Assembly (NCBI GenBank): GCA_964016885.1
Contig: OZ024746.1
Span: forward strand, 66,712,001 to 66,776,000
Direction of reading: 5' to 3'
From: Eledone cirrhosa
Lineage: Eukaryota
DNA length: 64,000 nucleotides
Below, one piece after another: positions 1,913 to 63,532 of this stretch (position 1 is the stretch's first letter; each line of letters starts with the position of its first letter). The notes below the pieces were generated by a model. The model saw only the letters and a list, made by a program, of their open reading frames with translations, searched no databases and was not told where the DNA came from. The position numbers and the translations under genes were made by a program.

Positions 1913-2299
1913 TTATACAAATGTATGTTTTATCTTCGCAAATAAGACTTTGAACTACAATATCTTGAAAACCATTTCCTATGATGTCTGTGTGGTGCTG
2001 TTTTTCTGCATCAATATTTCATGATTCAACTCGAAATGGTCTAACGTAGTTCTTAACAATGTCGTTTTCATTGTAGATTCTTCAGTTAAGTTGAAAAGAT
2101 TTTATGCGACTGTCTGTTCCTATTAACATACTGTTTAAGCAAACCGTTTCGAGATTGCCATTACTCCGGCTATGAAAGCGTTCCTCTTGCTATAATGACG
2201 AAAATGATAAATATTTTAAAAATAATATTAATAATAATTATCTTTATTTGCAATGGCTTCTTCATAATAATAATTGTTATTCTTATTCCATTAATAATA

Positions 2300-2483
2300 A
2301 TAATGGTTTCTGATTTAGGTGGAGGGAAAGTCGATTAATCGACCTCCAGTGCATTTTTGGTACTTTATTTCATCGATACCGTAATGAAGAAGGGCAAAGC
2401 TAACCTCGGCAGGATTTTAACTCAGATCGTAAAGGGGCGTAACACTATGCCATAAAGCATGTTGTCCGACGTTCTACCATACT
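2300..2483 (-). mobile_element. tRNA-derived SINE (family S, Meta-domain-like), diverged copy
   Basis: Reverse complement matches the copy at 2541-2738 (GAGTTxAAATC B-box, CTTT..CATxxT..GGxxTCGATxAAATAAAGTACC core); flanked by AAT repeats. Confidence 0.8.
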
Positions 2484-2540
2484 GAATAATAACAATAGTA
2501 ATTGTTGTTGTTATAATAATAATAATAATTATTATTATTA

Positions 2541-2738
2541 GGTGGATTGGCAGTATCGGTAGAGGGTGGGACGCCATGCTTTGACGCATAGAGTTACGGC
2601 CCTTGCCATTCTGAGTTCAAATTCCACCGAGGTTAACTTCACCATTCATCCTTATGGGGTCGATAAAATAAAGTACGAGTAATGTACTGGTGAATTGCTG
2701 GCCTTGTGCCAAAAGTAGAAACAATTATTATTATTATT
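2541..2738 (+). mobile_element. tRNA-derived SINE (family S) with (ATT)n tail
   Basis: A-box-like TGGCAGTATCGG, B-box GAGTTCAAATTCC, core CATCCTTATGGGGTCGATAAAATAAAGTAC resembling the MetaSINE domain, 3' GGCCTTGTGCCAAAAGTAGAAAC followed by (ATT)n; at least 8 copies in the window. Confidence 0.85.
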
Positions 2739-5700
2739 GTTCTTTGAGTCTCAGTCATGGATATTATTTAACTGGAATATCAAGTTGCTACCTGCAGCTT
2801 CAGATATTCAGGACGTATGGGAGGGTTCTTGCTGTTCCCAGCAAGCATGCCTTTTGAAGTTTTCAAAAAGCGGGGCTGGACTAATCTTCTTTAACCATCC
2901 TTGGAAACTTTTTGAGATAGTACCTAGTTCGCATATGACAATCGGGACGATCTTGATTTCATGGCAGTTCCAAATCCTTTTTAACTCCGACTTTAAGTCC
3001 TGGTATCGGTTAATTTTCTCCCTCTCATTTTCTTGCAATCTCGTGTCAAATGGGCAGGCTACATCTACAATCAGGCACGATCTTTTTTCCTCGTCCAAAA
3101 CCACCAGGTCAGGCCTATTGTGTTCTAATTTCTTGTCCGCCTGTATCCTAAAAACCCATAGCACCTTCACCTGATCGTTTTCTATCACCGACTTCGGCTT
3201 ATGCTCATACCACTTCTCAGAATGTGGTAAATTGTTTACTTTGCATAGATCCTAGTGGATCACCCTGCCCATCACATCATGTCTTTATAGTGAGTCTGGG
3301 CTAGGTGTTTACACTCGGATACAATGTGAGATCCTACACGGTGAGCTAGCCTCCTCCTTGTCAATATGGTGTTTCACCCATTTCGTTCTGAGGGCTTGCT
3401 CTTGCGCAGCCATTGGCATTCCTTCTCTGGATTTTTTAAGGTCTCCATTTTTATCCAGTTCCATGTCTGTGGATCTCTAAATTCAGTTTTTCTAAAGAAG
3501 GTACTGTTAAGGGGTTTTTCAAGAAGTCTGCTCTTCCTCCATGTTGTTAGTTCCTCCTTGGACATCCCCTGGTCTATTGTCTTCTCCTTCAGTACAATTT
3601 TGAGCATTGGCTCCCTACTGTCAGACATATATTTGCAGGTTGTTTTTCTCCATCTGAACACAGTACTCTATGCTGATAAGATCTCTTCCACCTTCAGATC
3701 TCTTTAAGTAGAATCTATCGACATCACTCCTCTTGTGGAACATGTTGTAGATAGTCAATAGCTTCCTAGTCTTCCTATCCATTTCTTTTTGTTCAGCAAC
3801 ATTCCATTTCAGAATTTCCGCACTGTCCCTAATAATAGACAGAGCTCGGCAATTCTCTGCACTTATGACATTCCTACTATTTAGATGTGATTTTAATACA
3901 CTCCTTACTCTCCTTATGTACTCAGATTTTATCGATTCCTTCATTTTTTTTTGTTCTTGATGTCATCTGCTTCCAGAACACCTAAATATTTGTATACCTC
4001 TTCAGTGTCAATTTTCTTTATCATCTCACATGTTGGTACCTGGATTCCGTTGCTTCTGCTCAATTTCCCCCACTTCATCACTAGGACTCCACACTTATTA
4101 ATACCAAATTCCATACATATATCATTGCTGAAAATACGGACAGTATCAACAAGTACATCAAACTCCTTATCATTTTTCCCAAAGAGCTAAAGATCGTCCA
4201 TGAAGTTGAGGTGGTTTTCCCAACTTGTATCCTGCTCTCACTTTTCGCAATATAACGGTTAAGGGTATCAGGGCAAGGACAAACAGCGGAGGGGTACACA
4301 CTATCTCCCTGGAAGATACCTCTCTTGATCATCACGCATCCCAATGATTCTTGACCCGATGTTAACTCTGTTTCCCAGGACTTCATACTTTTGCTCCACA
4401 ACTGTCTGATGTTATCTGCCACCTTGAACATCTCTAGGCTTTTGGTTATCCAAGAATGAGGTACCATGTCGAATGCCTTTTTGTAATCTATCCATCCCAT
4501 GGCAAGACCAGTGTGCCTCCTCTTGCAATTCTTCATTACCATCTTATCAATAAGTAACAGGTCTTTTGTACCACGGGACTTCTTTCGGCATCCTTTCTGT
4601 TCGTTCGGTAACAAGTTGTTTATGTGGAGGTGATGGTAGATTTCCTCAGACACAATGCTTGTTAACAGTTTCCACATTACGGACAGACATGTGATAGGCC
4701 TATAGTTGGTAACATCATTACCCTTTATTCGGTCTTTCATTACCAGAACTGTGGTAACTTCACCCGACATCAAGCAGTCATTGAACATGGTTGTCAGTTT
4801 CGGGTGGAGGGATGTTACATTTTTAATCCAATACCCTTGCACACCACGTGGGCCTGCTGATTTCCAGTTGGTTAGTTTTTTGGCCTGCCCTTCAAGAGTT
4901 TCAACTGTGATACTCAAATCAGGTTGTTGGTGTGCTTTTTCACTAATCCCCTTCTGACTATTATGTTCAATATCATGCTCCCATATTCCTCTCCAGAATG
5001 TCTTAGTCTGTTCCGCCTCAGGGATCACGTCGTTGCCTCTTTCTTTCCTTTCAAGGTGTCCAAAAAACATCTTCTGGTTGTAGTCAAACATGCGGTTCCG
5101 TTTATAATGAGTGACTCTGTTCTCAAACCGTCTAATATTTGCAGTTTTTTGCTACAATGCGTTGCTTCAGTTCCTCTATGATAATATTTAGCTTTTTCCC
5201 CATATTATTGTATTTTATTTCAAATCTATCTTTAGTGTCTATGTTTTGTAATGTCCCATTCAGTAAGGACTCAAGTTTTCCAATGTCTTTTCTCATTTCC
5301 TTGATTTGACCATTCAGTCGTTTCTTCCACCAAGGTTCTGATCTTTCTTGTTTGTTGTTTCCTCTAGTTTTTATGCCGCATTTGCGGTTGCTTTGAGGAT
5401 ATTGTTGCATTGGTGAAGGTTCCTCGCCTCAAGGTATGGGATGACTTTGTTTACCTTAGCTCTTGTTTGTTTTAACTTTTTCCTGTCTACAAATCTTAGG
5501 TTCATAGGTTTTCCACTATCATTGTTAATTTCATCTACCACTAAATTCAGGATATCAACCAAATCTTGTCTTAAACCGTCAGCATTCATTTCCTCAATGG
5601 CCGTATATTTGTTCCAGATGTTATTTATTTCAGCATTCAGATCATTGTCTGCTTCGGATGTTTCCTCAGCTCTCTCAACCTATTCACCTTCATTTCCCAC

Positions 5701-6296
5701 TGGCTCGTTTGCCTGACACACTCCACTCTCTATTTCCAACTTAATCTCTCTGCTCAGTTCCTCCAGTTCCAACTCGCTTATCCATCCATTAGTTCTTATT
5801 ACCCAAGCCTACCCGACCAATTTTTGTTCAGCTAATTGAAATAGACCAATCGCGTTCCAGATGTTATGCATCCGTTTCCTATAGCCTTTTTCCATGGGGT
5901 TACTCTTCTGGAAACATTTCATGACAGTTCTATTCAATTATTTCGTCCAGTTGGTTCTTGACCCTTTCCTTCTTCCTCCAACACCAGCAGTATTTGGATG
6001 ACACCCAGGTCCCTGCTGCTGGGCCAGGGTACACTTGCTGGGGGAGAGTCTTTCACATGACGTCCCAGTCTCCTTTCCACCGTTATTCTAACTGTTTAGG
6101 TTCGACATTTAAACACTCATATCGAGGATTGGTGAATGTATGGTTACATAAACACCGGTCATTTCATCACCCCCGGTGGTTTTAGCGTGGCACCATCACG
6201 CTGTAGACGAACATAAATAAATAAACGAACATAAATCAATAAAAACATAAAAAAATAAACATTAGTTTCATCGTAATGTTTGAATGTCTGACTTGG

Positions 6297-6298
<2 letters not shown>
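2739..6298 (-). mobile_element. R4/Dong-clade non-LTR retrotransposon (RT + restriction-like endonuclease), near full-length, degenerate
   Basis: N-terminal WT..N..VM.C...GYRKRM..IW motif (~5860-5950); RT motifs YRPITCL, EQKGCRKKSRGTKD, WIDYKKAFDMVPH, GIFQGDS, FMDDL (~4190-4205); HIVSEC zinc-knuckle remnant; RLE motif RPDLVVLD..IVDVACP..EK..RY.DL; both ends abut (TAA)n. Confidence 0.9.
2790..6120 (-). pseudogene. Fragmented single ORF of the R4/Dong element (RT-RLE)
   Basis: ORF pieces 5371-5589, 5132-5410, 4081-5091, 3621-3944, 3374-3661 and 2808-3188 are collinear parts of one protein broken by frameshifts and stops. Confidence 0.88.

Positions 6299-6330
<32 letters not shown>
6299..6330. 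repeat. (ATT)n microsatellite separating the Dong and Tx1 5' ends
   Basis: TTA repeats directly visible. Confidence 0.95.
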
Positions 6331-6544
6331 GAATGCCATGGTTGACGGAGGCTCGGCTCTGTAAGGTATAGTAATTTTTAACGTTATAACAATTGTAAAT
6401 TGTTTAAAACTTGAACCAAATTGTAGATAAAGACACCCTCCTCGTCGTGAGGGTATCTCTGCCCGTTATTTGGTCCTTCGCGGTTAAATAACCAGTTTTT
6501 GGGGTTCTGTACCCAATATTCATTTTAAACAGTAAAAAAATAAC

Positions 6545-8720
6545 ATGGCTACTAAAGAGAATTTTCACAAGTCACTCCCACTCCTTCCGTCTTCTTCTTC
6601 CTCAATCGTCATTACGTCAGAGAAAAGATTCTCTCTCTCCTTCCATTCTCTAAATGAGGTGTCGCCTCTGTCGCCTCTTTCGCAAGCGACGCCATTAAAG
6701 AAAAAGAAAAATGTAGTTTCTCGTAGCGTTCTTCATCAAGAGAAGCGCGTACCGTGGAACATTTCTCCATGACAACGACAACAACGAAAGATGTGTGCGG
6801 TAAATACGGAAAGCCATTTCATTCGTCTCACGTCATGAAGAATAGCAGCAGCAACCGTTATTACAGCAGCAGCAGCAACAGTGGCGAGGAGAATACTAGT
6901 AGCAGACGCAACAACATCAGCATAAGCATAAACAACAACAGCAGCAGCAGCAGCAACAGCAACAACAACAGCAGCAGCAGCAACAACAACAACAACCACA
7001 GCAACAGCGGCGGCAACGGTCGTAGTACCAGCAGCAACAACAAAATTAACAGCAGCTCTGACGACAACAACAACAATATCAAGAAAGTAAACCAATCTCG
7101 TTTGCAGGTATCGCAAAGAACCTGGAAACCATCCTTATAACAAATGAGTAATTACAGGAAGCAAAGAAGATGGTGACGAAAACCAGACACCGAGCAATCT
7201 GCAAGGCAGCCGAAGAATTTTTCGAAACCCAACAGCACTGTACGGTCACGTACCGTACAGTAAGCACAAAATCACGTAGGGTTGAAAGAGCCACTGAGGC
7301 TCAAATACAAATAGCCTTAGCGTCTGTGTGGCAGCGGAAAACGCATATCACTCGAGGCAAGTAATATGCCACCGTGGATGTGCTTTTTGTCACACACCAG
7401 GAGGCAAAGGCTCAATCCTTAGTGACCCTAAGGAGCGAGAAAGTGGTTTTGGTGCCCTCCTACTGCGCGCAACAAATTGAGAAGGTCAAACTGACCCCCC
7501 CCCCCCTCCGGGATGGCCCTTCTTGGCTGGCCGCGCCTGTTCTCGTCGGAATCGAGGACAAAACAACGGTACTGCAAGTGCAGAAAAAAGTACGAGAAGA
7601 TTGGGTCGGCGCCTCCATTGAGATGTTAATTCAAACCAACCAGGAGTGCATCGAAACTATCTCGGATGTGATAGACTTCGATAACGGCACTCAACTTCCC
7701 ATAAGTGTTGAGGGCAAATGCCCGAAATGCTTTCGCTGTGCGTCGAAGACTAACCTCAGGGCCTTCTGCAATTGGAAGACCCTGAGAAAGGAGAAAACGC
7801 CCCAACTTCCGAAACCGGCTCCACTGCTACCAGCGAGAGGAGAGGCGGCAAGCACGAGGGATAGGTCCGTAGCACCCATACCCACGCCACGGAAATCAAG
7901 AACAGCAGCAGCAGCAGCAGTGGAAGTATTAACAACAATAACAGTAATACCAACTGCAGCTGCAACAGAGACTCCACTGCAACCATCACCAACAAAAACA
8001 AGTGAAATAGTGGAGCTGGTACCCCTCCACGACCTCACAGAATCGGACATGGAGTGTGAGGTTGGTGAGGGATGGCAAAAGGTCGCAAGAAGGCACAAAC
8101 GCAGAAAACAGCGCATCGTCGCCTTCGAAAAGGGAAGAAAGAAATGAAAAAAGGGTAAAGGCTACTGCAAAGAGACTCACAGCAGCAACACCACCAACAC
8201 CATCAACACCCACACTATCACCACCATCACCACCGGCGGCAACCCCACCGCCAACAACAACAACACCTTCAACAACACCACCACAAGCAGCAACATCGCA
8301 AACACAACAACAAAACACACACACCCAGCAACAACTACAAGAAAATAGCAGAACCACACCCCACCCCCAAAAAAGAAATGCACAGTAATAAATACACACA
8401 ACAAGAAACTAATGACTTACATAATTGAACACACAGACATTTCACAGCACGAATACATAATACCAGCACCAATCAAAACACCAACGAACATAAGACTGGT
8501 AAGAATAGCACAGAAACAATACACAAACATTAAAACGAAATTCCCCAACGCAGTTGGTGATTTCAGAGACATAGGACGGACATTCAACCGGAGAGTATAT
8601 TCGGATATACCCACAGAAGAGCCGACGACCAGCCGAAGGGACGATTCAACGGTCCCATCACCACACGATCAAGTGAAAAGGGATGGAGAAACTTTCCTTC
8701 CTCTACGAGAAGTAAGGTAA
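6545..8720 (+). pseudogene. ORF1 (gag-like, CCHC knuckle) of Tx1-A copy 1, disrupted
   Basis: Fragments 6545-6772, 6754-7140, 7170-7364, 7374-8147, 8056-8388 and 8412-8720 align to ORF1 of copy 2; knuckle is CFRCASKTNLRAFC (His lost). Confidence 0.85.
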
Positions 8721-8754
8721 GTGGTATTTCCCATCTTTTCCACTCCATTTCAAC

Positions 8755-9038
8755 ATGACTTCACTCAGAATAGGCAGCATAAATGCGCGTGGCTTGGTGT
8801 CGTCATGGAAGCAGGGCCACCTGCTCAACGACCTCAGGTCACTAAACGTAGATGTAGTGGCCATCAGCGAAACCAGAATCTCCGAAGCACGGGCCTTCGC
8901 ACCGATCTTCGGCGGGTACGACGTGTACGCATGTCCCAGCCGTCCTGGATCGGGGGGAGGATTTGCTGTGCTTTTTCGGAGAGGTTTGGATCTCGCCATA
9001 CGGGCCATCTTCCTGAACCCAGAAGGTAAGTTGATGGT
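8755..9038 (+). pseudogene. Truncated ORF2 N-terminus (AP endonuclease) of Tx1-A copy 1
   Basis: SINARGL, VAISET and GGG.AVLF APE motifs; nearly identical to 16850-17133. Confidence 0.88.
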
Positions 9039-9256
9039 CAGGGTAACCGTGGCTTTTTTTAATGGGCTTTCTCCACGAATGTCCCTCGGAAGCCTCCCCC
9101 CTATTGTATCTTTTTTTATTACAACCTCTGTTTTTGTTTTCTTTTACACGCAGAAATGGCCATTTGTACCGTCCTGTATTGTCCTGTATTGACCTGTACT
9201 GTCCTTAATGTCTTACTTTGTGTAAACCCTTGTGGTTTATAATTATTATTATTATT

Positions 9257-9455
9257 ATTGGCAGTATCGGTAAGGGTCGGACGCCATGCTTTGAAGCATA
9301 GAGTTACCTCCCTTTATGATCTGAGTTCAAATCCCGCCGAAGTTAACTTTGCCTTTCATCATTACGGGGTCGATAAAATAAAGTACCAGTAATGCACTGG
9401 GATAATTGCTGGCCTTGTGCCAAAAGTAGAAACAATTATTATTATTATTATTATT
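9257..9455 (+). mobile_element. SINE family S in (ATT)n between two Tx1 elements
   Basis: Matches 2548-2738; (ATT)n on both sides. Confidence 0.88.
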
Positions 9456-9661
9456 GGTCTAAGCGGACGAGTTTTGCTCGCTCACAGTAAGTCGCTTTAT
9501 TTGCCTGTTAAAATTATTTGTTGTTAAATATTTCTTGTTGTGTAAGGGATATAAGCCCTTAGCCTTTGCCCCGTGAAGGGGAAAATATAATATTTGGGCC
9601 TTTTAGCCCAAATAGTTAAACTTTTTTTTACATGTTAACAAATTTACGAAGAAAAAAATAC

Positions 9662-11590
9662 ATGGCTGAGCCACGCCCCCCAACGATATGTCGGCTCTCG
9701 TGCGACAACGACGTAGAATTAATAGGAGCGCTACAGCGAAATTAACACACATTGATAACACAAACACGGTAAACAAAGACACCAATTATACCAATAAGAA
9801 CACTAATTTTGAAAAAAAATGACAGTAACAGCGACAACAAAAATACAGATAACAAAAAAAAATAAAACAAATACAACAATATCAACACCACTAACATGAA
9901 AACAAATAGCGACAACACCAACAGCAACAATACCAGCTGCACCGAGAACAACGGTGGCAACAAAGACAACAATGATAACAATGACAGTGCTAACAACAAC
10001 ACCAACAAGAACAACAACAACAAAACTCCCAACGAAAACAAGAAGAACACTTTCACTGCGGCAGCCACAAAAAAGAGGCCATGCTTCAACATGGACCTCT
10101 CAAACAAAGATGAAAAGTTTGCCCAGACAAGGAAGCTCATCAAGCAAGAGCAAACTTAACTGTCCCGGTAGAAGCTATTGAGACAGTGGAGCGCAAAACG
10201 GTGCATTATAGATGCATCTCAGCACAAACCAAAAGGGCAGCGTTAATCCCACAAGAAGATATCGATGTCGCGCTGAGGTGCATCAGAGAACACACCAAGT
10301 ACATAGAGAGCGGCAGACAGTACGGCACCATTTCGGTGTTGTTCAAGTCAGAAGCCCTCGCGATGAAACACGCCATGCCTCCTTGCAAAACCAGCAAGGT
10401 TATAATGTACCCCTCCCACATGGGAAAAAGAACAGCCCGTCTCCGCATTCCCAGAATCCCACCAGGACTTGACATGTGGTGGCTTCTGGGATGTGTGATT
10501 GTGGAGGGGACGGATGCAGTCCCTATAGAAGTGACCAGAACGGCCAGAGAGGACTGGTCCGGGGTTGACCTGGAGATCCTTCTCCAGATCAGGCCCGAGT
10601 ATGTGAAGACAATCCCAGACCATATCCGACTTCAGAATGGGACTGTCATTCACATTATAACCGAAGGCAAAAGGCCGCAGTGTTTGATTTGTAGGGAAAA
10701 AACCCATTTGCGAGCCTTCTGCCCTCAACTGTTGAAAGGGGCAAGGGGTCGAAAGGCTCCACTGCTGCCGACGCCGGGGCGAGGACCACAACCAACACCT
10801 GCACCGGCAAAACCAACAACAACAACACCAATAGAAAAACTACCACCACCATTGACCACCCAGGGGGGAAACGAAGAAAGCTGTCAAATTCCCCCTCCCC
10901 CCAAGAATACACACACCAATACAACCTTAAACATACATACAAACACACTTACAGACACAGACCCCTCATCTACCAGTAGTTAAGATGAGGGAAATCCAAA
11001 ATCCCCCAAAATACAAAAAAGGAAACACAAAAAGAAAAAAAAAACTCAACAAAGCACAAAAGCACCCACAATAAAAAAACGCAGACACCTTCCACGCAAC
11101 CATCTCTCCAATAACACCAACATCAACACCACCATCACCATCACCAGAATCCCCCAACCGCAAACAACCGAAACAGACGCAAGAACAAATATACACACAA
11201 ACATCTGAAACCACAGACACCGCACTCACAACAAACACAGATACAACAGAAACAACGCCACCAAAACCATCACCACCACAGCCACGCAAACAAATAAAAT
11301 CACACCAACAAAACATACAAAACTTCGTACTCGTCAGGAGGGCCAACAAGGAACTGATGGCCCTCGTAGCACGAAGTGAAAATATACAAAAAGAGGGGGA
11401 AATGTTTAAAAGATTTGGTTCTGGTGCGAATGTCGCTCGACATATTCAAAGAAATACGAGACAGCTTTCCTCGGGACATAGGAACCCCAAACGTAAAACC
11501 CACTTGAAGACTTTTAAAGGGGTTCCCAAAAGAAACCCCACTAACTATGGAGGTCGAACAACCCGACCTTCACAAGAGTCCGGAAGGTAA
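9662..11590 (+). pseudogene. ORF1 of Tx1-B, disrupted
   Basis: ATG at 9662 in ACATGGCT context like family A; pieces 9896-10159, 10186-10983 and 11357-11590; CX2CX4HX4C knuckle. Confidence 0.8.
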
Positions 11591-11625
11591 GTAAACCTTC
11601 CTCTCTCTCTGTTTAACCTGCCAAC

Positions 11626-14206
11626 ATGGCCGTATTAAGAGTAGGGTGTTTAAATGTTCGAGGCCTGGGATCGTCCTGGAAGCAGGGTCACCTGCTCAAC
11701 GACCTCAGGTCTATAAAAATGGATGTAATTGCAGTCAGCGAGACCAGGATTTCTGACACGCGCGCACTAGCCCCCATTTTCGACGACTATCAGATCTTTG
11801 CATCTGTTAGCCAGCCGGGAATGGGAGGCGGGCTGGCAGTGCTGTTTAGGAAAGGCCTGGATCTCGAGGTAAGGTCGATCTTCCGGGACCCGGACGGGAA
11901 GTTGGTGGTCCTGGACGTGAACAATAATGAAGGCAGTGCCTTTAGACTGGTGGCCGTCTATGCTCCTACTGGGACAGGACGGCCGGACTTCTTTAGACGC
12001 CTGGAAGCCTTTCTGGGTACGTCTTGACCTTTACTGTTAGCGGGGGACTGCAACGGCATCTTAGACGCACGCTGGGACTGTGTGAGAGTATCCGATAGGA
12101 GCGGGGGGTGCAAAAGCCTCAAGAACCTGATCAGCCATTTCCAACTGTCTGACAGGTACCGACTAGATTTCCCTAATGCGCCAGTGTGGACCTAAATATG
12201 CCAGAATTGTTCTCCAATCTCCTCGAAGCGCTCTACTGCAACTGGCAGCAAAACGGGAGTATTCCCAGTTCTGTGAGCCGGGGCGTAGTGACGCTGATAA
12301 GGAAAGACGAGAACAAGAGGGACATATTAGACAATTTCAGGCCCATAACTCTGCTCAACACAGAGTTTAAGATTTTGGCCAGGTTGTTAGCGAAGAGGTT
12401 GGCGCTTGTCGTCGGGGATTTGGTTGGGGAGACGCAAACTTGCGCAATCCCAACCAGGTCCATACACGACAACCTCCACCTAATGCGATACATCATAGAG
12501 AGGGTAGGTGTAAACCTGGGTTCGGTGGGGCTCTGATCAATTTAGAACAATCGAAAGCATTCGATAGGGTCGACCATCGGTACCTGGAGGCTGTCCTCAA
12601 GGCGGCTGGCTTCAGCCCCGTCTTCAGAAGCTGGATCGCTGCAATGCACAGCGGCACCTGCTCGATCGTCAAAATTAATGGCCACCTCTCGGAGCCGTTT
12701 CAGGTCTCCCGATCGGTCCGTCAAGGGAGCCCTCTCTCCTCCCTTCTGTACGTATTGACTCTCGAGCCTTTACTGCGGAAGCTGGAGCTGTTGCAGGGCA
12801 TCCCGCTCGAACCGGGACGCAGAAAGGCTGTGTCGGTTTATGCGGACGACATCGCCGTGATGGTGTCGGACACCTCAGAAATCGAGGTGGTCGGCAACTT
12901 ATTGGAGGAATATGAAAGGTTGACGGGAGCAAAACTTAACCGAGAAAAGTCAGTGGGCTTGCAACTCGGCACCTGGAGAGGCAAGTCCATGCCGTCCAAC
13001 AGCGTCGTTAGGCGCTGGACGGACGGACCGGTAAAGTTGCTAGGGGTTTGGTTCGGGCCAGACCTCCAGGTGGATAAGATTTGGGACGAGGTGACGGGCA
13101 GGGTAGTCTGTCTCACCCAGAAATGGGCGGGGATGAAGCTATCACTGAAAGGTCGGGCGGAGGTGGCGAACGCGTACATCGCGTCCGTCATCTACTACCG
13201 TCTGACTGTCGTCCCTTGCCCCCGTTCGCGGCTCGCCATCTTGGAGCGGCTCCTCTTCAAATTCTTGTGGAGGAGTCAAGTTCCGCTGGTGAGGCGGTCC
13301 ATCTGCTGCCAGCACCCTCTACGTGGAGGGCTGGGCATGCCGTGGCTAATGATGCGCAGGCACGCGCTGAGGCTGCGGCATCTCCAGATATTCTGCCTAA
13401 ACGGTGAACAGGTGTGGTCGCAGTTTGTCAGACGGGCCTCTCCGCAGCTCGTTTATTTGACTGAGTTGCAGTCCTGGGTCAAGAAGAGACCGAGACTGGG
13501 TGACTGGCATCTGGAATGTTGCCAGGCCCTCACTGCCCTCTACCAGGCGGGCAATGCAGTCAGTGGAACTTCCACTCTCGAGTTCTATAGAGGATTAGTG
13601 GTGGGCACGTGCGACGAGGCACTCGGAGAGCCTCTGGGAGTCAACGAAGTCGAACTAACCAGTCTGTACCGGAGGACTTTCGAGCCGGGGACGATGGATA
13701 ATTTCCAAAAATCCCTCGCTTGGCAGTGCTACCGGGGGACACTGCCGGTTCGAGATAAACTCTACAGGCACGGAAGTGCTGTCAGACGGACCTGCCCGAG
13801 ATGCGCGCAGAGTGACGAAACCGTTCTGCACGCACTCGTCCAGTGTCCGTGCATTACTGACTTGTGGCGTTATGTTGAACAGCTGTTGTCGCGTGTAGAA
13901 CGGATCCGGCTATCGGGCGAGTCCATAGTGAAGATCGACCCACCGCCTTCTTTTGGCCAGGAAGGGCAAGCAATTTTCCTCTGTCTGGTGGCAGTAGCGA
14001 AAGAGGTTGTATGGTGGACGAGGTTGATAGGACTGAAGACAGACACTTTTCTCTTCGGCCAATCCCTCATCAATTTTTCAAGTTTCACTTGGAAAGGAAG
14101 GTGAGGGTGGAGAGAGAAGTGCTGCCCCAGTAAATTTGCTGAAGGGTGCGTGAATGTGGCGAGAATGGCCCGTGTGAGTAGGCCTACTCTGGTCATGCGG
14201 CTGTAG
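11626..14206 (+). pseudogene. ORF2 (APE-RT-zinc finger) of Tx1-B, disrupted
   Basis: Pieces 11626-12027, 12186-12536 and 12440-14104 are homologous to ORF2 of copy A2; stop at 12025, deletion at ~12191, frameshifts. Confidence 0.88.
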
Positions 14207-14482
14207 GTAGGTAAATGTGAAGAGGAGAGGGGTGCCCTTCCAGGGTTCGCTCGAAGCGTCGGGTCGTTCAGGACTGGTTGGGTACCTGAGCGAACCCTAG
14301 GTGGTCATCTCCCTCTATTGGGGAATATTTTCTTGTAATTTTCTTGTTACTTTATTGTGACCTTGTTATTGTTACTTTGTTATTGTTATTTATATTGTTT
14401 ACTCGATTTTTCTGTAAAACCCCACTGTCTCAGTCTTTTGTATTGTCCCCTATATGTCGGCCATTGTGGCCAATAAATGAAA

Positions 14483-14517
<35 letters not shown>

Positions 14518-14731
14518 GAATACCATGGTTGACGGAGGCTCGGCTCTGTAAGGTATAGTAATTTTTAACCGTTAAAACAATTGTAAATTGTTTAAAACTT
14601 GAACCAAATTGTTGATAAAGACACCCTCCTCCTCGTGAGAGGGGTCTTTCTGTCCGTCATTTGGCCCTTCGGGGCTAAATAACCAGTTATTGGGGTTTTG
14701 TACCCAATATTCATTTTAAACAAAAAACAAC

Positions 14732-16814
14732 ATGGCTACGAAAAAGAAATTTCATACGTCACTCCCACTCATTCCGTCTTCTTCTTCGTCAATCATCACT
14801 ACAGCAGAGAGAAGATTGTCTCTCTCCCTCCCTTCTTTAAATGTGTCTCTCTCCCTCCCTTCTCTTTCGCAAGTGACGAAAGAAAAGAAAAGTCTCGTGC
14901 AAAGCGTGCAAAGTTTCTCCACGACGACGACGACAGCGACGAAACAGGTGTGCGGGAAATACGAAAACCCAGTTCATTCGTCTGACGTCAGGAATAATAG
15001 CAGTAGCAGCCGTAATAACAACAGCAACAGTGACAATGAAAACAACAGTAGCAGCCGCAACAGCATCACCAGCAGCATAAACAACAACAGCATTAGCAGC
15101 AGCAACACCAACAACAACCACAGCAACAGCGGCGGAGGCAGTAGTCGTAGTACCTGCAGCAACAACAAAAGTACCAGCAGCTCTGACGACAACAACAACA
15201 GCAGAGAAAAACCAATCTCATTTGCAGGTATTGCGAAAAACTTGGAAACAATCCTCATAACAAATGAGGAATTAGAGGAAGCGAAGAAGATGGTTACAAA
15301 AAACGGACACCGAGCAATCTGCAAGGCAGCGGAAAAATTTTTCGAAACCCAAGAGCACTGTACGGTCACGTACCGTACAGTAAGTACAAAATCCCGTAGG
15401 GTGGAAAGAGCCACAGAGGCCCAAATACAAAAAGCCTTGGGGTCTGTGTGGCAGCGGAAAACGCACATCACCCGAGGCAAAAAATATGCCACCGTAGACG
15501 TACTTTTTGCCACACCCCAGGAGGCAAAGGCCCAATCAGTAGTGACCCTAAGGAGCGAGGAAATGGTGTTGGTGCCCTCCTACTGTGGGCAAAAAATTGT
15601 GAGGGTCAAACTAACCCACGTCCCCCCCCCCCGGAATGACCCCTTCTTGGCTGGCCGCGTCTGTCCTCGTCGGAATCGAGGACAAAACAACTGTACTGCA
15701 AGTACAGAAAAAAGTACGAGAAGATTGGGTCGGCTCCTCCATTGAGATGCTAATCCAAACCAACCAGGAGTGCATCGAAGCTATCCCGGATGTGATAGAC
15801 TTCGATAACGGCACTCAACTGCCCATAAGTGTTGAGGGCAAACGCCCGAAATGCTTTCGCTGTGGATCGAAGACTCACCTCAGGGCCTTCTGCAACGAGA
15901 AGACCCTGAGAAAGGAGAAAACCCCCCTCCTTCCGAATCCGGCTCCACGGCTACCAGCAACAGGACAAGCGGCAACCAGGAACGATAGGTCCGTGGCACC
16001 CATACCCACTCCACGGAAATCAAAAACAGCAGCAGCAGTGGAAATATTAACAACAACAACAGCAATACCAAATGCAGCTGCAACAGAGACTCCAGTGCAA
16101 ACATCACCAACAACAAGTGAAAGAGTGGAGCTGGTACCCCTCCCCGACCTCACAGAATCAGACATGGAGTGTGAGGTGGGAGAGGGATGGCAAAAGGTCG
16201 TAAGAAGACACAAACGCAGAAGCAGCGCATCGTCGCCTTTGAAAAGGGAGGAAAGAAATGAGAAAAGGGTAAAGTCTACTGCAAAGAGACCCACAGCAGC
16301 AACAACACCAACACCATCACCACCCACACCAGCACCACCATCACCACCGCCAACAACACCTTTAACACCACCACCACAAGCACCAACATCGCAAACACAA
16401 CAACAAAACACACACACCCAGCAACAACGACAAGAAAATAGTAGAACCACACCCCACCCCCAGAAAAACAAATGCACGGCAATAAATACACACAACAAGA
16501 AACTAATGACTTACATAATTGAACACACAGACATTTCCCAACAGGACTACATAATACCAGCACCAATCAAAACGCCAACTAACATAAGACTGCTAAAAAT
16601 AGCACAGAAACAATACACAAACATTAAAACGAAATTCCCCAACGCAGTTGGTGATTTCAGGGACCTAGGAGGAACCATCAATCGAAGAGTATACTCAGAC
16701 ATTCTCTTAGAAGAGCCGACGACCAGCCGAAGGGACGATTCAACGGTCCCTTCACCAGACGATCAAGTGAAAAGGGATGTAAAAACCATCCCTCCTCTAC
16801 CAAAAGTACGGTAA
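14732..16814 (+). pseudogene. ORF1 gag-like protein (Asn/Ser-rich N-terminus, CFRCGSKTHLRAFC CCHC knuckle, Pro/Thr-rich tail); one frameshift in a C11 tract
   Basis: ORFs 14732-15745 and 15636-16814 join if one C is removed from the run at 15622-15632. Confidence 0.87.
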
Positions 16815-16849
16815 GTGGTCTTTCCCATCTTTTCCACTCTATTTTAAAC

Positions 16850-19800
16850 ATGACCTCACTCAGAATAGGCAGCATAAATGCGCGTGGCTTGGGGTCGTCA
16901 TGGAAGCAGGGTCACCTGCTCAACGACCTCAGGTCACTAAACATAGATGTAGTGGCCATCAGCGAGACCAGAATCTCCGAAGCACGGGCCTTCGCACCGA
17001 TCTTCGGCGGCTACGATGTGTACGCATCTCCCAGCCGTCCTGGATCCGGTGGAGGAGTTGCTGTGCTTTTTCGGAGAGGTTTGGATCTCGCCATACGGGC
17101 CATCTTCCTGGACCCAGAGGGTAAGCTGGTGGTGCTGGACGTGACCAGCGGAGACGGGCAAGCTTTCAGGCTAGTGGCCGTCTATGCCCCGACAGGAGCA
17201 GGGCGGCCTGATTTCTTCCGGCGTCTGGAGAACTTTCTTGGAACGTCCCGCTCTTTAGTGTTAGTGGGCGACTGGAACGGGATCTTAGATGCACGCTGGG
17301 ACTGTGTAGGATTAGCGGATAGGGGTGGAGGGTGCAAGAGCCTCACCAACCTGCTCAGGCGTTTTGAACTGTCTGACAGGTACCGATTGGATTTCCCGAA
17401 TGTGCCAATGTGGACTTGGACAAACCGCATAGGGTCATCCAGATCATATCTAGATAGAGTATTTTGTAGGGAAATAGATAGGTCTAGCATAGGCTGTCCA
17501 CAATTCAAGATAGTCAGCTACACGGACCACAAATTCGTGACCTGTGTGCTTGACTTAGATAGGCTTCATAGACGAGGACCCGGCTACTGGAAGCTAAACG
17601 CGTCCTTACCAGCGCGCAAGGCCTACAGAGACCGGATTAGCGAACTAGTTAAGCGGGCGTTGACGGGGGCCATCGTCAACAACAAGTGGTGGTTTGCTCT
17701 GAAAAGAGCGATTAGAATAGAATCGATTAGGTTTAGTAAGGCTTTAGCAATAGAGAAAAATAGAGCAGAGGGAGAACTAGTTAGAAAATTAGACGAGGCG
17801 CTTAGCAAAGGCATTGCGACCGACGTGCTTGCGGCAAAATTGGCCCTTGACCAATTCTTCAATGCAAAGCACGAAGGCTGCGTTGTCAGAGCTAGGGTGC
17901 GTGCTCTCAGACACGAGGGGACGAAAGCCGTTCAATGGGCCCGAGTGGCGGAGGCGCGTCGTGGCAACAAAGCCACGATCCGGTCTTTGGTGGACCACGA
18001 CGGGCGCATGCTACTCGATCCCGGGCAAATGTGTGAAGCTTTTCAGCGACACTTCGCTCAGCTGTTCGGGGGAAGCGGGGGGCCGGGTAGAGGGATGGAC
18101 TTTAGTGTCTACCTCGACGGACTGCCGCGGCTCTCGGCCACTGAGGCGAAGTGTTGCGAAAAGCCGATAACAGCCGCTGAAGTACGGGAGGCAATGACTG
18201 GCTGCACAAGGGGTAAATCGCCTGGTTTGGATGGTCTGCCCTATGAACTTTACGTACAGATGCCAGACTTGTTCGGAGGCCTCTTGGCGGACGTCTACTG
18301 CAACTGGCAACAGAACGGGAGAATTCCCAGTTCTGTGAGCCGAGGAGCGGTGGGACTGCTGAGAAAGGATCCGAACAAGGGGGATAACATAGACAATTTC
18401 CGGCCCATAACTCTGCTAAACACATAGTTTAAGATTTTGGCCAAGGTGCTAGCAAAGAGGTTGGCGCTTGTCGTTGGTGGTCTGGTGGGAGAGGCGCAGA
18501 CATGCGCCATTCCCGACAGATCCATCCACGACAACCTCCACCTCATGCGATACATCGTAGAGAGGGTAGCTAGGGAACCTGGCACGGGTGGGTCCTTGAT
18601 CAATTTAGATCAGTCGAAAGCTTTCGATAGGGTCGACCATCGTTACCTAGCGGCAGTCCTGAGGGCGGCAGGCTTTGGGCCCGTCTTCAGAGGCTGGATC
18701 GCTGCCATGCACAGCGACATCTGCTCTGTGGTGAGAGTGAACGGTCACCTGTCGGAACCGTTCAACATCATGCGCTCGGTCCGCCAAGGATGTCCCCTCT
18801 CGTCCCTCTTGTACGTATTGACTCTCGAGCCATTATTGCACAAACTGGAGACGTTGAGGGGAGTCCCGCGCGAACTAGGATGCGGAAGATCCGTGTCAGC
18901 ATATGCGGACGATGTCACCGTAGTGGTGTCGAACGCCAAACACATCGAGGCGATCGGCACTACACTAAGAGAATACGAAGCGTTGACAGGAGCAATGATC
19001 AACCAGGAAAAGTCAGTGGGCCTGCAGCTCGGCACCTGGAGAGGCAGGTCCATGCCGTCCAACAGCGTCGTCGGGCGCTGGACGGACGGACCGGTTAAAT
19101 TGCTAGGGGTCTGGTTCGGTCCGGACCTCCAGACGGACAAAAACTGGGACGAGGTGACGAGCAGGGTGGCTTCTCTCACCCAGAAATGGGCGGAGAGGAA
19201 GCTATCCCTGAAAGGTCGAGCGGAGGTGGCTAACGCGTACATCGCGTCTGTCATCTGCTACCGCCTAACCGTCGTACCTTGTCCTAAGCCTCGCCTGACT
19301 GCGCTGGAGCGTTTGCTCTTTCGCTTTTTGTGGAAGGGACGTGCTCCGATGGTCAGGCGGTCCATCTGTTGTCAACACCCGCTACGTGGAGGGCTGGGCA
19401 TGCCGTGGCTGATGATGCGCAGGCACGCGCTCAGGCTACGACATCTCCACCTCTTCCTCGACGGTGATCAGGTGTGGTCGCCGTTTGCTAGACGCGTTTT
19501 TCCCCAGCTCGTTTCCTTGACGGAGCTGCAGTCCTGGGTCAAGCGAAGACCGAGAGGGAGCGCCTGGAGACTGGAATGTCTTCAGGCGCTCACAGCCCTC
19601 GACCAATCGGGCAATGTGATCGGTGGAAACTCCACCTCGGCGTTCTATAGAGGATTAGTGGAGGGGAAGAGCGACGACGTACTTGGTGAAACTCTAGGCG
19701 TCGACGAAAATCAACTAGCCAATCTCTTCGGAAGAACTTTCGGGCCAGGGCCTATGGACAACTTCCAGAAATCTCTGGCCTGGCAGTGCTACCGAGGAGC

Positions 19801-20269
19801 CTTGCCAGTTCGGGATAAACTCTACAGGCATGGAGGTGCCGTCAGCCGGGCATGTCCGAGATGCGCGCAGGGCGACGAAACCGTCCTGCACGCACTCGTC
19901 CAGTGTCCGAAAATTGCTGACTTGTGGATTTATGTCGAACACCTGCTGTCGCGTTTAGGACGGATCCAGCTATCATCTGAGTCTATCGTGAGGATTGCCC
20001 CGCCCTCCTCCTTTAGCCGGGAAGGGCAGGCAGTTTTTATCTGTCTGGTGGCCATGGCGAAAGAGATAGTATGGTGGACACGTTTGAAAGGGCTGAAGAC
20101 GAGCACTTACCTCTTCGGTGATGCTCTGATTGACTTTTTCAAATTTCATTTGAAAAGGAAAATCAGAGTAGAGAAGGAAGTGCTCTCTTCCCAGCATTTT
20201 GTTGAAAGATGGGTGAGAGAAGCAAGAATGGCCCGAGTGAATGGGCCGACTCTGAGTATATATCTGTAA
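16850..20269 (+). pseudogene. ORF2 APE endonuclease-reverse transcriptase-zinc finger, single in-frame stop
   Basis: ORFs 16850-18427 and 18437-20269 are in the same frame; TAG at 18425-18427 corresponds to GAG (Glu) in family B; motifs GDWN, LDRVF, TDH, PGYWKLN, KSPGLDG, DQSKAFDRV, QGCPLS, YADD, CPRC...H...C. Confidence 0.92.
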
Positions 20270-21386
20270 ACTAAAGGTGGAAAACTGGGAGAGGGCACTT
20301 GCCTTGGTGGTCAGGGTCATTGTGGCTTTTTACTGGGCTTTCTCCACAAATGTCCCTCCGAAGTCTCCCCCCTATTGGGGAATTTTTCATTGTTATTTTC
20401 ATTGTTATTTTTGTTACATCCTCTGTTTTTGTTTTTTTACACGCAGAAATGCCCATTTGTACCGTCCTGCATTGTCCTGCACTGTCCTTAATGTCTACTT
20501 TATGTAAACCCTTGTGGTTAATAAAGAAATCATTATTATTATTATTATTATTATTAGTAGTAGTAGTAGTAGTAGTAGTATGCAGCGGAAAAACGAATAT
20601 GGTGACGATGGCGATAATAAAAGCAAGTAGAAAAAATTAAGTAGGCAAAAAGTAAAGAGAAAAATAAATAAAAAAAGAAACAAACAATTAAAGAGAAATA
20701 ACCTATAGAACGTAGGAAGAAAAAATATAATAAAGCGACGTAGAACCAATTATAGCTGTAAAAATATTTGGTAAGCACGTTGAAGTAGGAACAGGAACAT
20801 ACAGGCACTTCAGAGTCCTAGAAGATAAAAGGTTTGTATGAAAAACTTAATAACCCATGCTGTTTTGAAGTCCAATGTATTAAAAACAAAGTCTCTATCG
20901 GTCAAACATGACAGGCCAGACAGAACTGAGGATTTAAAGAAAACATGTTTTAAACGATATATTTATTTATGTTTATACATAAAACGTTAACCACCGCACT
21001 AGATGACAGATGCTTTAATTGGAGGTGGGAGTTAATTTCTAACAATATTATTGACAGGTGATACACTAAAGTTTCTTTTTTGTCATTTATGTTTCCTCAT
21101 TATACTGACACTAAGGGGTAAGTTTTTAAAGAAAGATTGTATTCAACTCAAATGATTTAGATAATTAATGGCAACTATTTTATTACCTAAGTACAGAGGG
21201 AAAAATGGGCATTTATCTTTTTTTTAAATCGCCATTGACACAAGGGAAATAAAATAGTGTAATGATGTTAGTTCGTGCTCTATTACTACAGTCACTTCCT
21301 CTGTTTAGGAATATGGTAGCAGCCACTGAATTTACGTCAAATCATTACATTCTATCTGTTTAGAGTTTTCATTTCATTATATATAT

Positions 21387-27298: not shown

Positions 27299-27451
27299 TG
27301 ATAATAACAACTATATTAATTATTGTTTCTACTGTTGGCACAAGGCCAGCAATTACCCAGTGCATTACAAATAGAGTACCAGTAATGCACTGTGAAATTG
27401 CTGGCCTTGTGCCAAAAGTAGAAACAATAATTAATATAGTTGTTACTATCA
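27299..27451. repeat. Short palindrome made from the SINE S 3' end plus flank
   Basis: GTTTCTACTGTTGGCACAAGGCCAGCAATT mirrors AATTGCTGGCCTTGTGCCAAAAGTAGAAAC; mirror extends into non-SINE flank. Confidence 0.85.
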
Positions 27452-29024
27452 TTGCCATCGCCTTATTTGACATGGTCATTATCACCGTCATTATACTCTA
27501 CCGTCGTCATCATCAACATCATAATCATTGGTATCATCATCAAAGTAAAACCGTGCGTCATGTTCATTAATGATCATCATCACCGCCTTGATTATGGTGA
27601 TCCTCATCAACGTCAGTGCCAGCGTTCCCATTATTATTGTCATCACGTGAAAGATTAATTTTAATCTAAACACGAATTTCAATAAATAATTCTCTATCAT
27701 AACTCAGTCCTCAGGGCAAAATCGAAACGTAAAGAAAGAAAAAAATCACATTTGAAGTAGAAACTCAATTAGACACCCTCCAGCGGAATTTATATTTATT
27801 TATTTTCCTGGATTCAAAGCTCATATTATTTTCTACTTTTCTCATATCTAATTGTGTATTAAACAGTTTTGAAAGAACAGTTTTGATTAACAACGATTTC
27901 CTTAGGTGAGTATACACTTCGTTTAATTTTCCTCTACAGGTTTCGGTGATTGATCGCATGATTATGCTGGGGCACCCTAATTGTTTTTAAATTCCTAATA
28001 TCCACTGTAATGCCTTTTACGGTGAATATTTCATCGTTCAATAATATATATGTATATATACATATAAGGACTCGTAGGTCACTAAACTGAGGCAAGCATA
28101 TATATCTGCAACTTTGAGTGAAAGTTTTGCTGGTCTTGATTTCTATGGCACCTTGGAAAACTTTACAAATAAGGTTTACTCTGTGTGAGCTGAGGTACGT
28201 GATTTCAGAAACTGAAAATACTAGAGAATTTGGATGAAATCGAACATAATATCAACCAGCTACTGGAAAGTAAGCATAATCTTAATTGAAAGCTCGTGAA
28301 TCAGAATCTTGTTATGCAGCCGTCTGATGAGAAAGCCTACAAAGATCACCACTCAACCCTGCAATGCGAACTTCACAGGATGAAAATCAGAGTTTGAGCA
28401 AACGCTTTTCTGAAATTCAACAGATTCAACAGATTCAAAGTCGTTTAACATCAAACACAGACAAACACGAACATATGGTAAAAAAAGGTATAATAGTCAG
28501 AGCACGACTATACGATGAATTAGATCTAATTGGCGTGTAACATAAATGCTCGTTTCAGGAACACGCAGGAACTTGTGAAAGAAAGCGCAATCAGCCTTGC
28601 CTGCTTTCGAGAACATTTAGCTAGCAATCATTTACAAATTTCCCTGTCCTATTCGAATTCCCCCTGTACAAATGATAACACATGTATATAACATTATGTT
28701 TCTAACCAAATCATGAATAGCTGTCTACTTTTCTCGAAATGGATTTTGGATTTTATATCTTGTCATAATCGAACCAGTTCTCGTTATTCTTTCTTTATAT
28801 ACCAATCTCACCAGCTGCTAGACGTAAGCATAATTTACAAATATATCTGTTGCTAATTTAGTCCTATATTTATCAACACTTTTCATGTGTGTAGCAACAC
28901 TTTTCTATAGTGTAGGAGTTTCACCACATATTCCCCTATGTTGATGAGATCTTTCAAAATACATAGAAACATTACATGTATATCAACTCAAAGTATGGAT
29001 TTCTTGATTAGTGGTAGTAATAAT

Positions 29025-29152
29025 TGTTTCTACTTTTGGCACAAGGACAGCAATTGCCCCAATTCATTTCTGGTGCTTTATTTTATCGACCCCGTAAGGA
29101 TGAAAGGTAAAGTTAACTTCAGCGGGATTTGAACTCAGAACGTAAAAGGCCA
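29025..29152 (-). mobile_element. SINE family S, 5'-truncated, 16-bp TSD
   Basis: TSD TAGTGGTAGTAATAAT at 29009-29024 and 29153-29168. Confidence 0.88.
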
Positions 29153-29465
29153 TAGTGGTAGTAATAATATAATCGATAAAGTGAGGAGATTGTAGATGAC
29201 CCCACAATCTATTACATTTAGGCTTCTCTCTGGAGAGAATGTTGTTTACGAGCAGTGAGTTCATAGAATAATACGACAAAGCCATAATATATTAGCGGTA
29301 TAATCTCTCTCTCTCTCTCACTCTCTATCCCTATCTCTCTCCCTCTCTCATTCTTTCTCCCTTTCTCTCTCTCTCTGCATCGATCTATCTATCTATCCCT
29401 CCATCTCTCTCTCTTTATATATATATATGTAAGAATATTTTCGAAATAGCGAGTGGGTGTGAAAT

Positions 29466-29803: not shown

Positions 29804-29846
29804 ATATATATATATATATATTTATATATCTGGCAGGAAAGTATAC

Positions 29847-29885
29847 GTTGCTGACGATAGCTAATAAGCTTGAAACTAGTACAGC
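29847..29885 (+). ncRNA. Type I minimal hammerhead motif
   Basis: GTTG-CTGACGA-T AGCT AATA AGCT T-GAAA-CTAG-TA-CAGC; palindromic stem III ACTAGT. Confidence 0.7.
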
Positions 29886-30030
29886 ATTCCTTTGTGAGTG
29901 TTGAACAAACGAGCAACGATGGTTGCCAGACACTACGGCTTAATACGGGATGTTTGTTTACAAACACACCTAGCATTATAGTGAATGTTCGGTGAATCCA
30001 TACGTACATATATATATATATGTGTGCATG

Positions 30031-47587: not shown

Positions 47588-47718
47588 TAGTATTAGAATA
47601 TTTCATATCGTCAGCAACTTTAATAGTCAATACAGATATGTACTTGATGGTGTTGCTTCATAAAGTTGCACAAAACATGTGAACATTCCGTACCTCTACT
47701 AATACTAGAAATAATAAT

Positions 47719-47905
47719 AATTGTTTGTACTTTTGGCACAAGGCCAGCAATTACAAAGTACATTACTGGTACTTTATTTTATCGACCCCGTAAAGATGAA
47801 AGGCAAAGTTAACCTCGACGGGATTTGAACTCAAACTGTAAATGGACGTAACTATGCCAGAAAGCAGGGCGTACAAGCCTCTACTGCTACTGCCAATTCA
47901 CCGCC
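47719..47905 (-). mobile_element. SINE family S, full-length, ~14-bp TSD
   Basis: TSD CTAG(A/C)AATAATAAT at 47705-47718 and 47906-47919. Confidence 0.88.
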
Positions 47906-52902: not shown

Positions 52903-53074
52903 ATCGGTAGAGGGTCGGACGCCATGCTTTCCAGCATAGTTACGTCCCTTTACGGTCTGAGTTCAAATCCCGTCGAGGTTAACTTTGCCTTTCATCCTTA
53001 CCGGGTCGATAAAATAAAGTACCAGTAATGAACTGGGTAATTGCTGGCCTTGTGCCAAAAGTAGAAACAATTAT
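52903..53074 (+). mobile_element. SINE family S, 10-bp TSD
   Basis: TSD ATTATCTAAT at 52895-52904 and 53070-53079. Confidence 0.88.
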
Positions 53075-53506
53075 CTAATTATTCAATTGCTTTTATAGTA
53101 AACTTACTTGAAATTATTGGCTACTTTATTATTTCATCTACGTTTCAAATGATTGTTAGCATTTGCATTTAAACATCAGTAACTATCACTTCTTTCCCTC
53201 ACAAAGTGTATTGTGGGGAAACGTAAGTCATTTGAACTGCCACATGTCAAATTAGTTGATGTTGGAATCAGCCCTACCCTACGATCTTCAGTGTTTCTGT
53301 AAAATTTCTTATTTAGGTGTAGGAGATTGCGTGGTGCTAAGTTTTTCCTTTGTAGGACCAATATGAACGACGTGGAGATATCTTTTCTGAAATTAGTCTG
53401 ATTACGAAGAAAACAACAAAATGTTTTCACATTACTTTAACCTTTTACAGCAAGGGTTATAAATTTATAGATATTATATTCTGGGGATATCTTATTTCTC
53501 ATTCTT

Positions 53507-62429: not shown

Positions 62430-62588
62430 GCGGTGGATTGGCAGTATCGGTAGAGGGTCGGACGCCATGCTTTCCAGAATAGTTACGTCCCTTTACGATC
62501 TGAGTTGAAATCCCACCGAGGTTGACTTTGCCTTTCATCCTTATGGGGTCGATAAAATAAAGTACCACTAAAGTAAAAACAATTATTA
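62430..62588 (+). mobile_element. SINE family S (3' internal deletion), 10-bp TSD
   Basis: TSD ATTATTAAAA at 62417-62426 and 62582-62591. Confidence 0.85.
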
Positions 62589-63221: not shown

Positions 63222-63391
63222 TTAAAAGAAACACAACCATGACTGACATCCAATGTTTGAATTTTGATAAAATTATACATTTTATTCTAATCAACAGCTA
63301 GAAGAAAACTATATTGCATGTAACTATATTGCATGTATAATAAAACTATATTGCATGTATAATAAAACATTCCACGCATTATTTTACATAT

Positions 63392-63530
63392 ATAGTTACG
63401 TCCCTTTACGGTTTGAGTTCAAATCCCGTCGAGGTTAACTTTGCCTTTCATCCTTACGTGGTCGATAAAATAAAGTACCAGTAATGTACTGGGTAATTGC
63501 TGGCCTTGTGCCTAAAGTAGAAACAATTAT
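63392..63530 (+). mobile_element. SINE family S, 5'-truncated, 15-bp TSD
   Basis: TSD ATTATTTTACATATA at 63378-63392 and 63526-63540. Confidence 0.88.
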
Positions 63531-63532
63531 TT

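Follow-up and report, generated by a model that had tools for sequence, protein, structure and literature searches.

A short predicted 3'-terminal hairpin common to an abundant SINE and Tx1-type LINEs of Eledone cirrhosa: a candidate retrotransposition partnership

Pairs of a short interspersed element (SINE) and a long interspersed element (LINE) of the L1 clade that share their 3' ends have been described in plants and algae: ZmSINE2/3 with LINE1-1_ZM in maize and sorghum, and SINEX-3 with L1-1_CR in Chlamydomonas (Ohshima 2012, PMC3472496; 2013, PMC3747384). In the case of Tx1 elements, crocodilian SINEU has been proposed to be mobilised by Tx1-Mar, as argued from target preference and overlapping ages (Kojima 2015, PMC4494074); SINEU has small nuclear RNA heads and poly(A) tails, and the available text of that paper reports that no LINE similar to the 3' half of SINEU-1 was found. 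The elements considered here are a SINE and a set of Tx1-type LINEs of the octopod Eledone cirrhosa (assembly GCA_964016885.1, 3.0 Gb). They were noticed in a 64,000-nt stretch of contig OZ024746.1 (positions 66,712,001 to 66,776,000, GC content 36%), called the window below, where an original prediction made from the letters alone had proposed that Tx1 copies the SINE by recognising a terminal hairpin present in both.

Octopus OK, OR1 and OR2 are tRNA-derived SINEs (Ohshima and Okada 1994, cited in PMC4758252, PMC4824008 and PMC5804259), for which the available text of the three citing papers gives no partner LINE; the present SINE may be one of them or a relative. SINEs make up ~12% of the O. 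vulgaris assembly (PMC13282606), and the partners given for bivalve SINEs are CR1, CR1-Zenon, L2 and Nimb (PMC11481361). In the available part of the 2013 review, Tx1 occurs only in the phylogeny text (five occurrences), not in the table of 58 pairs (PMC3747384). Our literature search returned no report of a structured tail common to a SINE and a Tx1 element, and no partner LINE named for octopus SINEs; Repbase, SINEBase or subscription papers may already record the pair. The starting premise that L1-group elements are relaxed and poly(A)-dependent has published exceptions, namely the L1 elements of maize and Chlamydomonas (PMC3472496).

The end common to the Tx1 elements and the SINE is ~25 nt long and consists of a 3-4 bp stem, a 5-nt loop, a purine run and the target junction. 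In the window, the five hairpins originally listed (4-bp stem, 5-nt loop) are all present: at 2699-2711 and 9410-9422 in two SINE copies (2541..2723 and 9257..9434), at 9225-9237 and 20507-20519 in two copies of the family Tx1-A (6331..9241 and 14518..20531), and at 14459-14471 in a copy of Tx1-B (9456..14484), all on the plus strand. Among the 355 pentamers of the loop type on both strands, 14 are closed by a 4-bp Watson-Crick stem, the expectation being ~1.4 at equal base frequencies and higher in AT-rich DNA. Of these 14, nine coincide with element ends (the five above and four more SINE copies), and the other five are background. The hairpin is exact in six of the ten SINE copies of the window, carries one change in two and is missing from two. 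No single end folds better than its own shuffles (z from -0.99 to +0.09), and the case therefore rests on the comparison between families.

Genome-wide, 137 Tx1 3' ends were collected by protein searches; the locus sets are search hits, and the LINE sampling is partial, drawing on the top-ranking hits of a few searches and on 600 kb of random sequence. About ten tail types were found. The ends fall into a group flanked by (ATT)n (families A, B, C and D) and a group flanked by (TATC)n (E, F and relatives), which separate with full support on the tree of open reading frame 2 (ORF2), the bootstrap being not fully settled. The occurrence of the same hairpin end in the (TATC)n sister group is a target switch inside one Tx1 radiation. 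Nearly all Tx1 ends show a 3-4 bp stem and a 5-nt loop with a variable middle base, followed by the poly(A)-signal hexamer and a short run of purines. Two details of the first description change in this wider sample. The loop of Tx1-B, given as starting with A, mainly starts with C (24 copies), the A-starting form being a minor variant (2 copies); and the A-rich spacer attributed to both kinds of element is in Tx1 the canonical poly(A)-signal hexamer, which is absent from the SINE end. In the 28 pairwise comparisons of eight Tx1 representatives, identity is 82% over the last 26 nt, against 54-56% at positions 52-200 upstream in the untranslated region (UTR) and 66% at the end of ORF2. A single pattern covering Tx1-A to D and F gives 21,684 matches in the genome (control 98).

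These LINEs belong to the L1 group. Their ORF2 contains the domains PF03372 (APE), PF00078 (reverse transcriptase, RT) and PF13966 (zf-RVT), the closest solved structure is the human L1 ORF2p (E 3e-18), and the Tx1 duplications of 13-16 bp lie within the range of roughly 7-20 bp used for the group. The nearest named relatives of ORF2 are unannotated cephalopod proteins (Argonauta 68%, Acanthosepion 38%). Since no named Tx1 reference came up in the ORF2 searches, the narrower label Tx1 is inferred from the microsatellite flanks and the ORF1 zinc knuckle. A CCHC knuckle in ORF1 is a feature of the Tx1 clade and is seen in the translations of Tx1-A and Tx1-B; a preference for microsatellites is another, and (ATT)n lies on both sides of most copies, with the sister group in (TATC)n. 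Tx1-A is very young: all 150 hits that were scored have 99-100% identity, and many open frames are near 1,200 aa. It also forms head-to-tail arrays with ~6-kb spacing and many near-identical full open frames, e.g. C1:441104837-441135723 and C1:234592724-234617955, pointing to a very recent burst of re-insertion into its own (ATT)n flanks.

The SINE, of putative tRNA type, is 188 nt long, and its 17-nt tail word has 215,135 exact matches in the genome. It shows the traits of its class (short, non-coding, with 5'-truncated copies, target duplications and a high copy number). A- and B-box-like motifs were found by eye in the young copy 9257..9434, and a search with ARAGORN and Rfam gave no tRNA match. 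Of 40 copies scored against 9257..9434, 39 others are at 98-99% identity. In old copies (50 of 62 with an alignable tail) the stem positions keep 84-94% identity and the loop positions 76-96%, and four spacer positions fall to 38-78%. An older SINE family (L181, L224, L259, L342) has the same body and a different 3' part, which suggests a different LINE partner.

The last 24 nt of the SINE were aligned, anchored at the end, to the LINE ends, with significance taken against 1000 shuffles; the window of 24 nt was picked after the motif had been seen, which counts against the strength of the comparison. All ten Tx1 ends score 16-25 (p 0.001-0.036), whereas all nine other LINE ends (three RTE, four CR1, one I-like and one Dong) score -3 to 7 (p 0.14 or more). 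None of these nine thus resembles the SINE end, which answers the question of whether another LINE among those sampled fits the tail better. A profile search with PF09004 for CR1/L2 ends gave nothing, and the comparison covers neither L2 nor Penelope ends. A U-A-closed Tx1 form carrying the loop of the SINE has 534 exact matches with several different UTRs, and the SINE 13-mer differs from it only at both partners of one pair; this one-pair difference supports the stem register first proposed. A search for Tx1 tails attached to a SINE body gave 117 matches; most of the 100 listed consist of a SINE with a separate short Tx1 after it. A single case (L413) has an old SINE body with a Tx1-type end ~90 nt later and may be a nested short Tx1 insertion or a relic of a tail-swapped SINE.

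With respect to the insertion signature, 79 of 128 SINE copies have an identifiable duplication, which measures 13 bp or more in 46. The duplications begin right after the last base of the SINE; the long ones, of 13-21 bp, open with the initial pentamer of an (ATT)n run. The (ATT)n run after the hairpin is thus present as first described, but as a SINE tail it does not hold, being largely target-site duplication. Of 150,743 exact SINE ends, 123,857 (82%) lead into the opening five bases of an (ATT)n run, whereas only 2 lead into the (TATC)n target. The ends of the (ATT)n-group Tx1 are likewise followed by these five bases, on the same strand and at the same junction. Six Tx1 copies have non-repeat duplications, of 13-16 bp, five of the six coming from the (TATC)n group. 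The published modal duplication is 13-15 bp for the L1 clade and 10-12 bp for RTE (PMC6007223), and the lengths in the SINE and Tx1 fit the L1 clade better than RTE.

The family-level pair count was made on 13 rows (11 Tx1 and 2 SINE), from which two single copies with 4- or 6-nt loops (L042, L043), one tail with a loop change of its own (L031) and every tail that had been selected through a stem pattern were excluded. In these rows 86.5% of the cells pair, compared with 73.2 ± 3.7 in shuffles, none of 500 being as high; with related rows, one or two evolutionary events behind each two-sided change and a structure read off these same sequences, this result is not a probability. Slid-register controls pair at most 61.5%. 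Counted outwards, the innermost stem pair does not vary, the second reads C-G in every Tx1 but G-C in the SINE, the third reads G-C except in Tx1-A, where it is A-U, and the outer pair is U-A, G-C, A-U or G-U. Two-sided changes are found in three of the four stem pairs. The compensatory covariation claimed at the outset is real at the level of families, but it comprises few events in a four-pair stem in which the outer pair is often broken. Folding the last 30-60 nt of the SINE alone gives a predicted pairing of 0.8-1.0, and the predicted inner-pair probability is 0.4-0.99 in eight of nine Tx1 ends. Contigs of four sequencing runs aligned to the Tx1-A end list no common variant in 20507-20531, which is weak evidence.

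The best explanation of the whole is, at a probability of roughly 0.58 judged from sequence comparison, that the SINE is copied in trans by the ORF2p of an (ATT)n-group Tx1 recognising the hairpin and the purine run. The shared end, the two-sided stem changes between families, the shared pentamer and strand and the long duplications are its directly supported part. That Tx1 is the partner of the SINE is quite probable and well supported by the tail likeness, specific to Tx1 among the sampled ends, by the shared pentamer and polarity and by the L1-like duplications; stringent, hairpin-dependent recognition by the Tx1 ORF2p is somewhat favoured. The tail of the SINE would derive from an ancestral Tx1 whose stem was closed by U-A; being a transcript of RNA polymerase III, the SINE would have lost the unneeded poly(A) signal, and it would have flipped one C-G pair to G-C. 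The ORF2p of an (ATT)n-group Tx1 would then bind the terminal hairpin and purine run of either Tx1 or SINE RNA and nick the strand complementary to the (ATT)n run, the last few RNA bases would pair with the nicked end, and reverse transcription would start there. The SINE would pair with only about five bases, while Tx1 RNA would carry more repeat units, which would explain the looser targeting of the SINE.

Several results weigh against this explanation. The target of the SINE is looser, as 99 of 128 SINEs have at most two repeat units after their end and 70 of 77 (ATT)n-group Tx1 have at least three, and only one (ATT)n-group Tx1 gave an informative duplication. Tx1-A and the SINE both have near-identical young copies, but CR1, RTE and others are also young here, so that co-activity does not discriminate. 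The covariation rests on about 4-5 events in related rows, each two-sided change being one or two events, and the stem is only 3-4 bp long. Its outer pair fails in five of the 13 rows; in the SINE, for which a 4-bp stem had been given, the outer U-A pair is not fixed, being kept in 111 and broken in 61 among 213 tails, i.e. broken in 61 of the 172 with an intact inner stem (~35%). In two full-length SINE forms the predicted hairpin pairing is only 0.15 and 0.02, because an upstream segment competes, and it is 0.0 in Tx1-D. The loose outer pair and these two predictions, together with the poly(A)-signal hexamer that follows the stem in all Tx1 types, would suit a history in which the SINE owes both its tail and its mobilisation to Tx1 without the hairpin acting as the recognition signal: the hairpin would be kept in Tx1 for 3'-end processing beside the poly(A) signal, or as primary sequence, and priming would depend only on pairing of the last bases with the target. 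We regard this as unlikely: the SINE dropped the hexamer yet kept stem and loop while its spacer drifted, and the one difference of its 13-mer from the U-A-closed Tx1 form restores pairing.

The partner could also be looked for outside the sampled Tx1 families. A LINE of another clade (an unsampled RTE, an (ATT)n-ended CR1 or Dong) would leave the Tx1 likeness as chance or a relic. The looser SINE target and the partial LINE sampling speak for it, RTE partners also tie the start of the duplication to a terminal repeat (PMC6007223), and a young CR1 family (L241, L242, L323-L352) has an (ATT)n tail of its own on the same strand. This CR1 was rejected as partner: its terminal hairpin is different and longer, and no long duplication was seen by eye in 24 of 30 loci, those with a visible 5' end. 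The RTE families were set aside for their other terminal repeats (part of 30 RTE loci inspected) and Dong for its use of the opposite strand and its unlike end. With the nine dissimilar ends and the L1-like lengths of the SINE duplications, a partner from another clade seems distinctly improbable. More improbable still is an unsampled Tx1/L1 family with a SINE-type stem and a relaxed target, of which Tx1-A and Tx1-B of the window would be relatives and not carriers. The Tx1 tails are diverse, several older types having surfaced late, and the Tx1 ends that come nearest to the SINE tail are those of the (TATC)n group, with a target not shared by the SINE, so that the SINE combines a stem like that group's with the target of the (ATT)n group, again a point against the favoured explanation. 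So is the outcome of the targeted genome patterns, which found no Tx1 family with the flipped pair of the SINE and no SINE subfamily with the Tx1-type pair. Two patterns for a Tx1 with a SINE-type stem gave 166 matches, which look like old SINEs among the 100 listed, and 1,148, mostly like single mutants among the 100 listed. For the SINE subfamily 19 matches were obtained, with ~5 expected from single changes; 17 are scattered SINE copies of different subtypes, and the excess can be explained by unequal ages. The failure to find such a Tx1 family speaks against an unsampled carrier, as do the very young copies of the SINE, since their carrier should be young and visible.

Some further observations concern the LINE ends. 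For Tx1-A, C, E and F, but not for B or D, folding predicts pairing between an upstream U-rich stretch and the A-rich run that follows the hairpin; the longer stem so formed would enclose the poly(A) signal. Several Tx1 copies (L460, L471, L456, L457, L464) measure no more than 25-45 nt, with their start a little upstream of the hairpin; L460, for example, has 26 nt and a 13-bp duplication. This may be a truncation pile-up at the stem or a selection effect of the search patterns. The tails of the young (ATT)n CR1 family often serve as SINE targets (L324, L339, L351).

In the window the retroelements form a pile-up (2292-20555), in which a minus-strand SINE, a SINE, a minus-strand Dong/R4-like LINE, an internally deleted Tx1-A, a SINE, Tx1-B and a full-length Tx1-A follow one another, parted by (ATT)n runs. 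The first is an older long-form SINE copy with the hairpin deleted (2292..2503, minus strand), followed by the tRNA-type copy 2541..2723. The decayed LINE with an RT (2739..6300, minus strand), which we take to be of the Dong/R4 clade from its C-terminal motifs, sits in the same microsatellite as Tx1 and the SINE. An (ATT)n run (6302..6328, plus strand) separates it from the first Tx1-A copy, and further runs lie at 2724-2738, 9242-9259, 9435-9455, 14485-14517 and 20532-20555. The first Tx1-A copy has an internal deletion of ~3.2 kb, the endonuclease region being fused to the 3' UTR over an overlap of ~8 bp at 9031-9038, and its terminal purine run is lost. In the Tx1-B copy, ORF1 has a CCHC knuckle, an endonuclease-like region, RT and zf-RVT follow in broken form, and the poly(A)-signal hexamer comes after the hairpin. 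The second Tx1-A copy is full-length, with ORF1 including the CCHC knuckle, an APE-RT-zf-RVT ORF2 interrupted by one in-frame stop at 18425-18427, and the hexamer at 20520-20525. Outside the pile-up, two 5'-truncated SINE tails lie head to head with a hairpin in each (27303..27437, no strand assigned), and SINE copies with the hairpin are found at 47710..47904 (minus strand) and 52903..53083 (plus strand). The 5'-truncated copy 29015..29154 (minus strand) has one stem substitution and a 16-bp duplication, 62430..62575 (plus strand) is without the hairpin, and 63382..63531 (plus strand, 5'-truncated) has a broken outer pair and a 17-bp duplication. Long inverted repeats (21981-22395/23301-23713, 95% over 415 bp; 41183-45692; 29464-31105) and nested inverted units of ~200 bp are likely non-autonomous DNA transposons, and a marginal Rfam match to SNORA11 at 745-828 (37 bits, cut-off 36) is likely due to chance.

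A broader proposal, on which the evidence appears to us about evenly poised, is that octopod Tx1 are stringent, hairpin-recognising L1-group elements that kept a ~25-nt signal across the switch from (TATC)n to (ATT)n, and that the dominant SINE captured this signal, flipped one pair, outnumbers its carrier ~tenfold and inserts more freely. If true, this would name the engine behind a major SINE expansion, give the L1/Tx1 group an animal example of recognition specific to the tail, and bear on the question of whether recognition of poly(A) alone, as in mammalian L1, is derived. The partnership is open to experiment, with many near-identical Tx1-A copies having full open frames and natural stem variants serving as ready controls.

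Among the known systems, a proposed Tx1-SINE pairing and stringent pairs of the L1 clade have both been described before. The model of ORF2p recognising a terminal stem-loop, with a short terminal repeat in priming, is that of UnaL2/UnaSINE and ZfL2 (Hayashi 2014, PMC4176376); these elements are of the L2 clade and their recognition was shown by assay, whereas that of Tx1 and the SINE is inferred. Kibi and Koshi are Tx1 families inserted in (TC)n and (TTC)n microsatellites, the targets here being (ATT)n and (TATC)n, and the available text mentions no SINE partner for either (PMC4494074). For SINEU and Tx1-Mar, too, mobilisation of a SINE by elements of the Tx1 clade is proposed, from a common target preference and overlapping ages, but the SINE of Eledone has a tRNA-like head, carries no poly(A) in the DNA and has a structured 3' end in common with its presumed partner. 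The maize and Chlamydomonas pairs are alike in joining an L1-clade LINE with a SINE and in having a variable stem with compensatory changes, a conserved loop and a conserved 3' flank. Those pairs, in plants and algae, share ~50-80 nt with a stronger stem (about -11 to -18 kcal/mol), whereas the Eledone pair is found in an animal, with ~25 nt in common, a 3-4 bp stem and microsatellite targeting.

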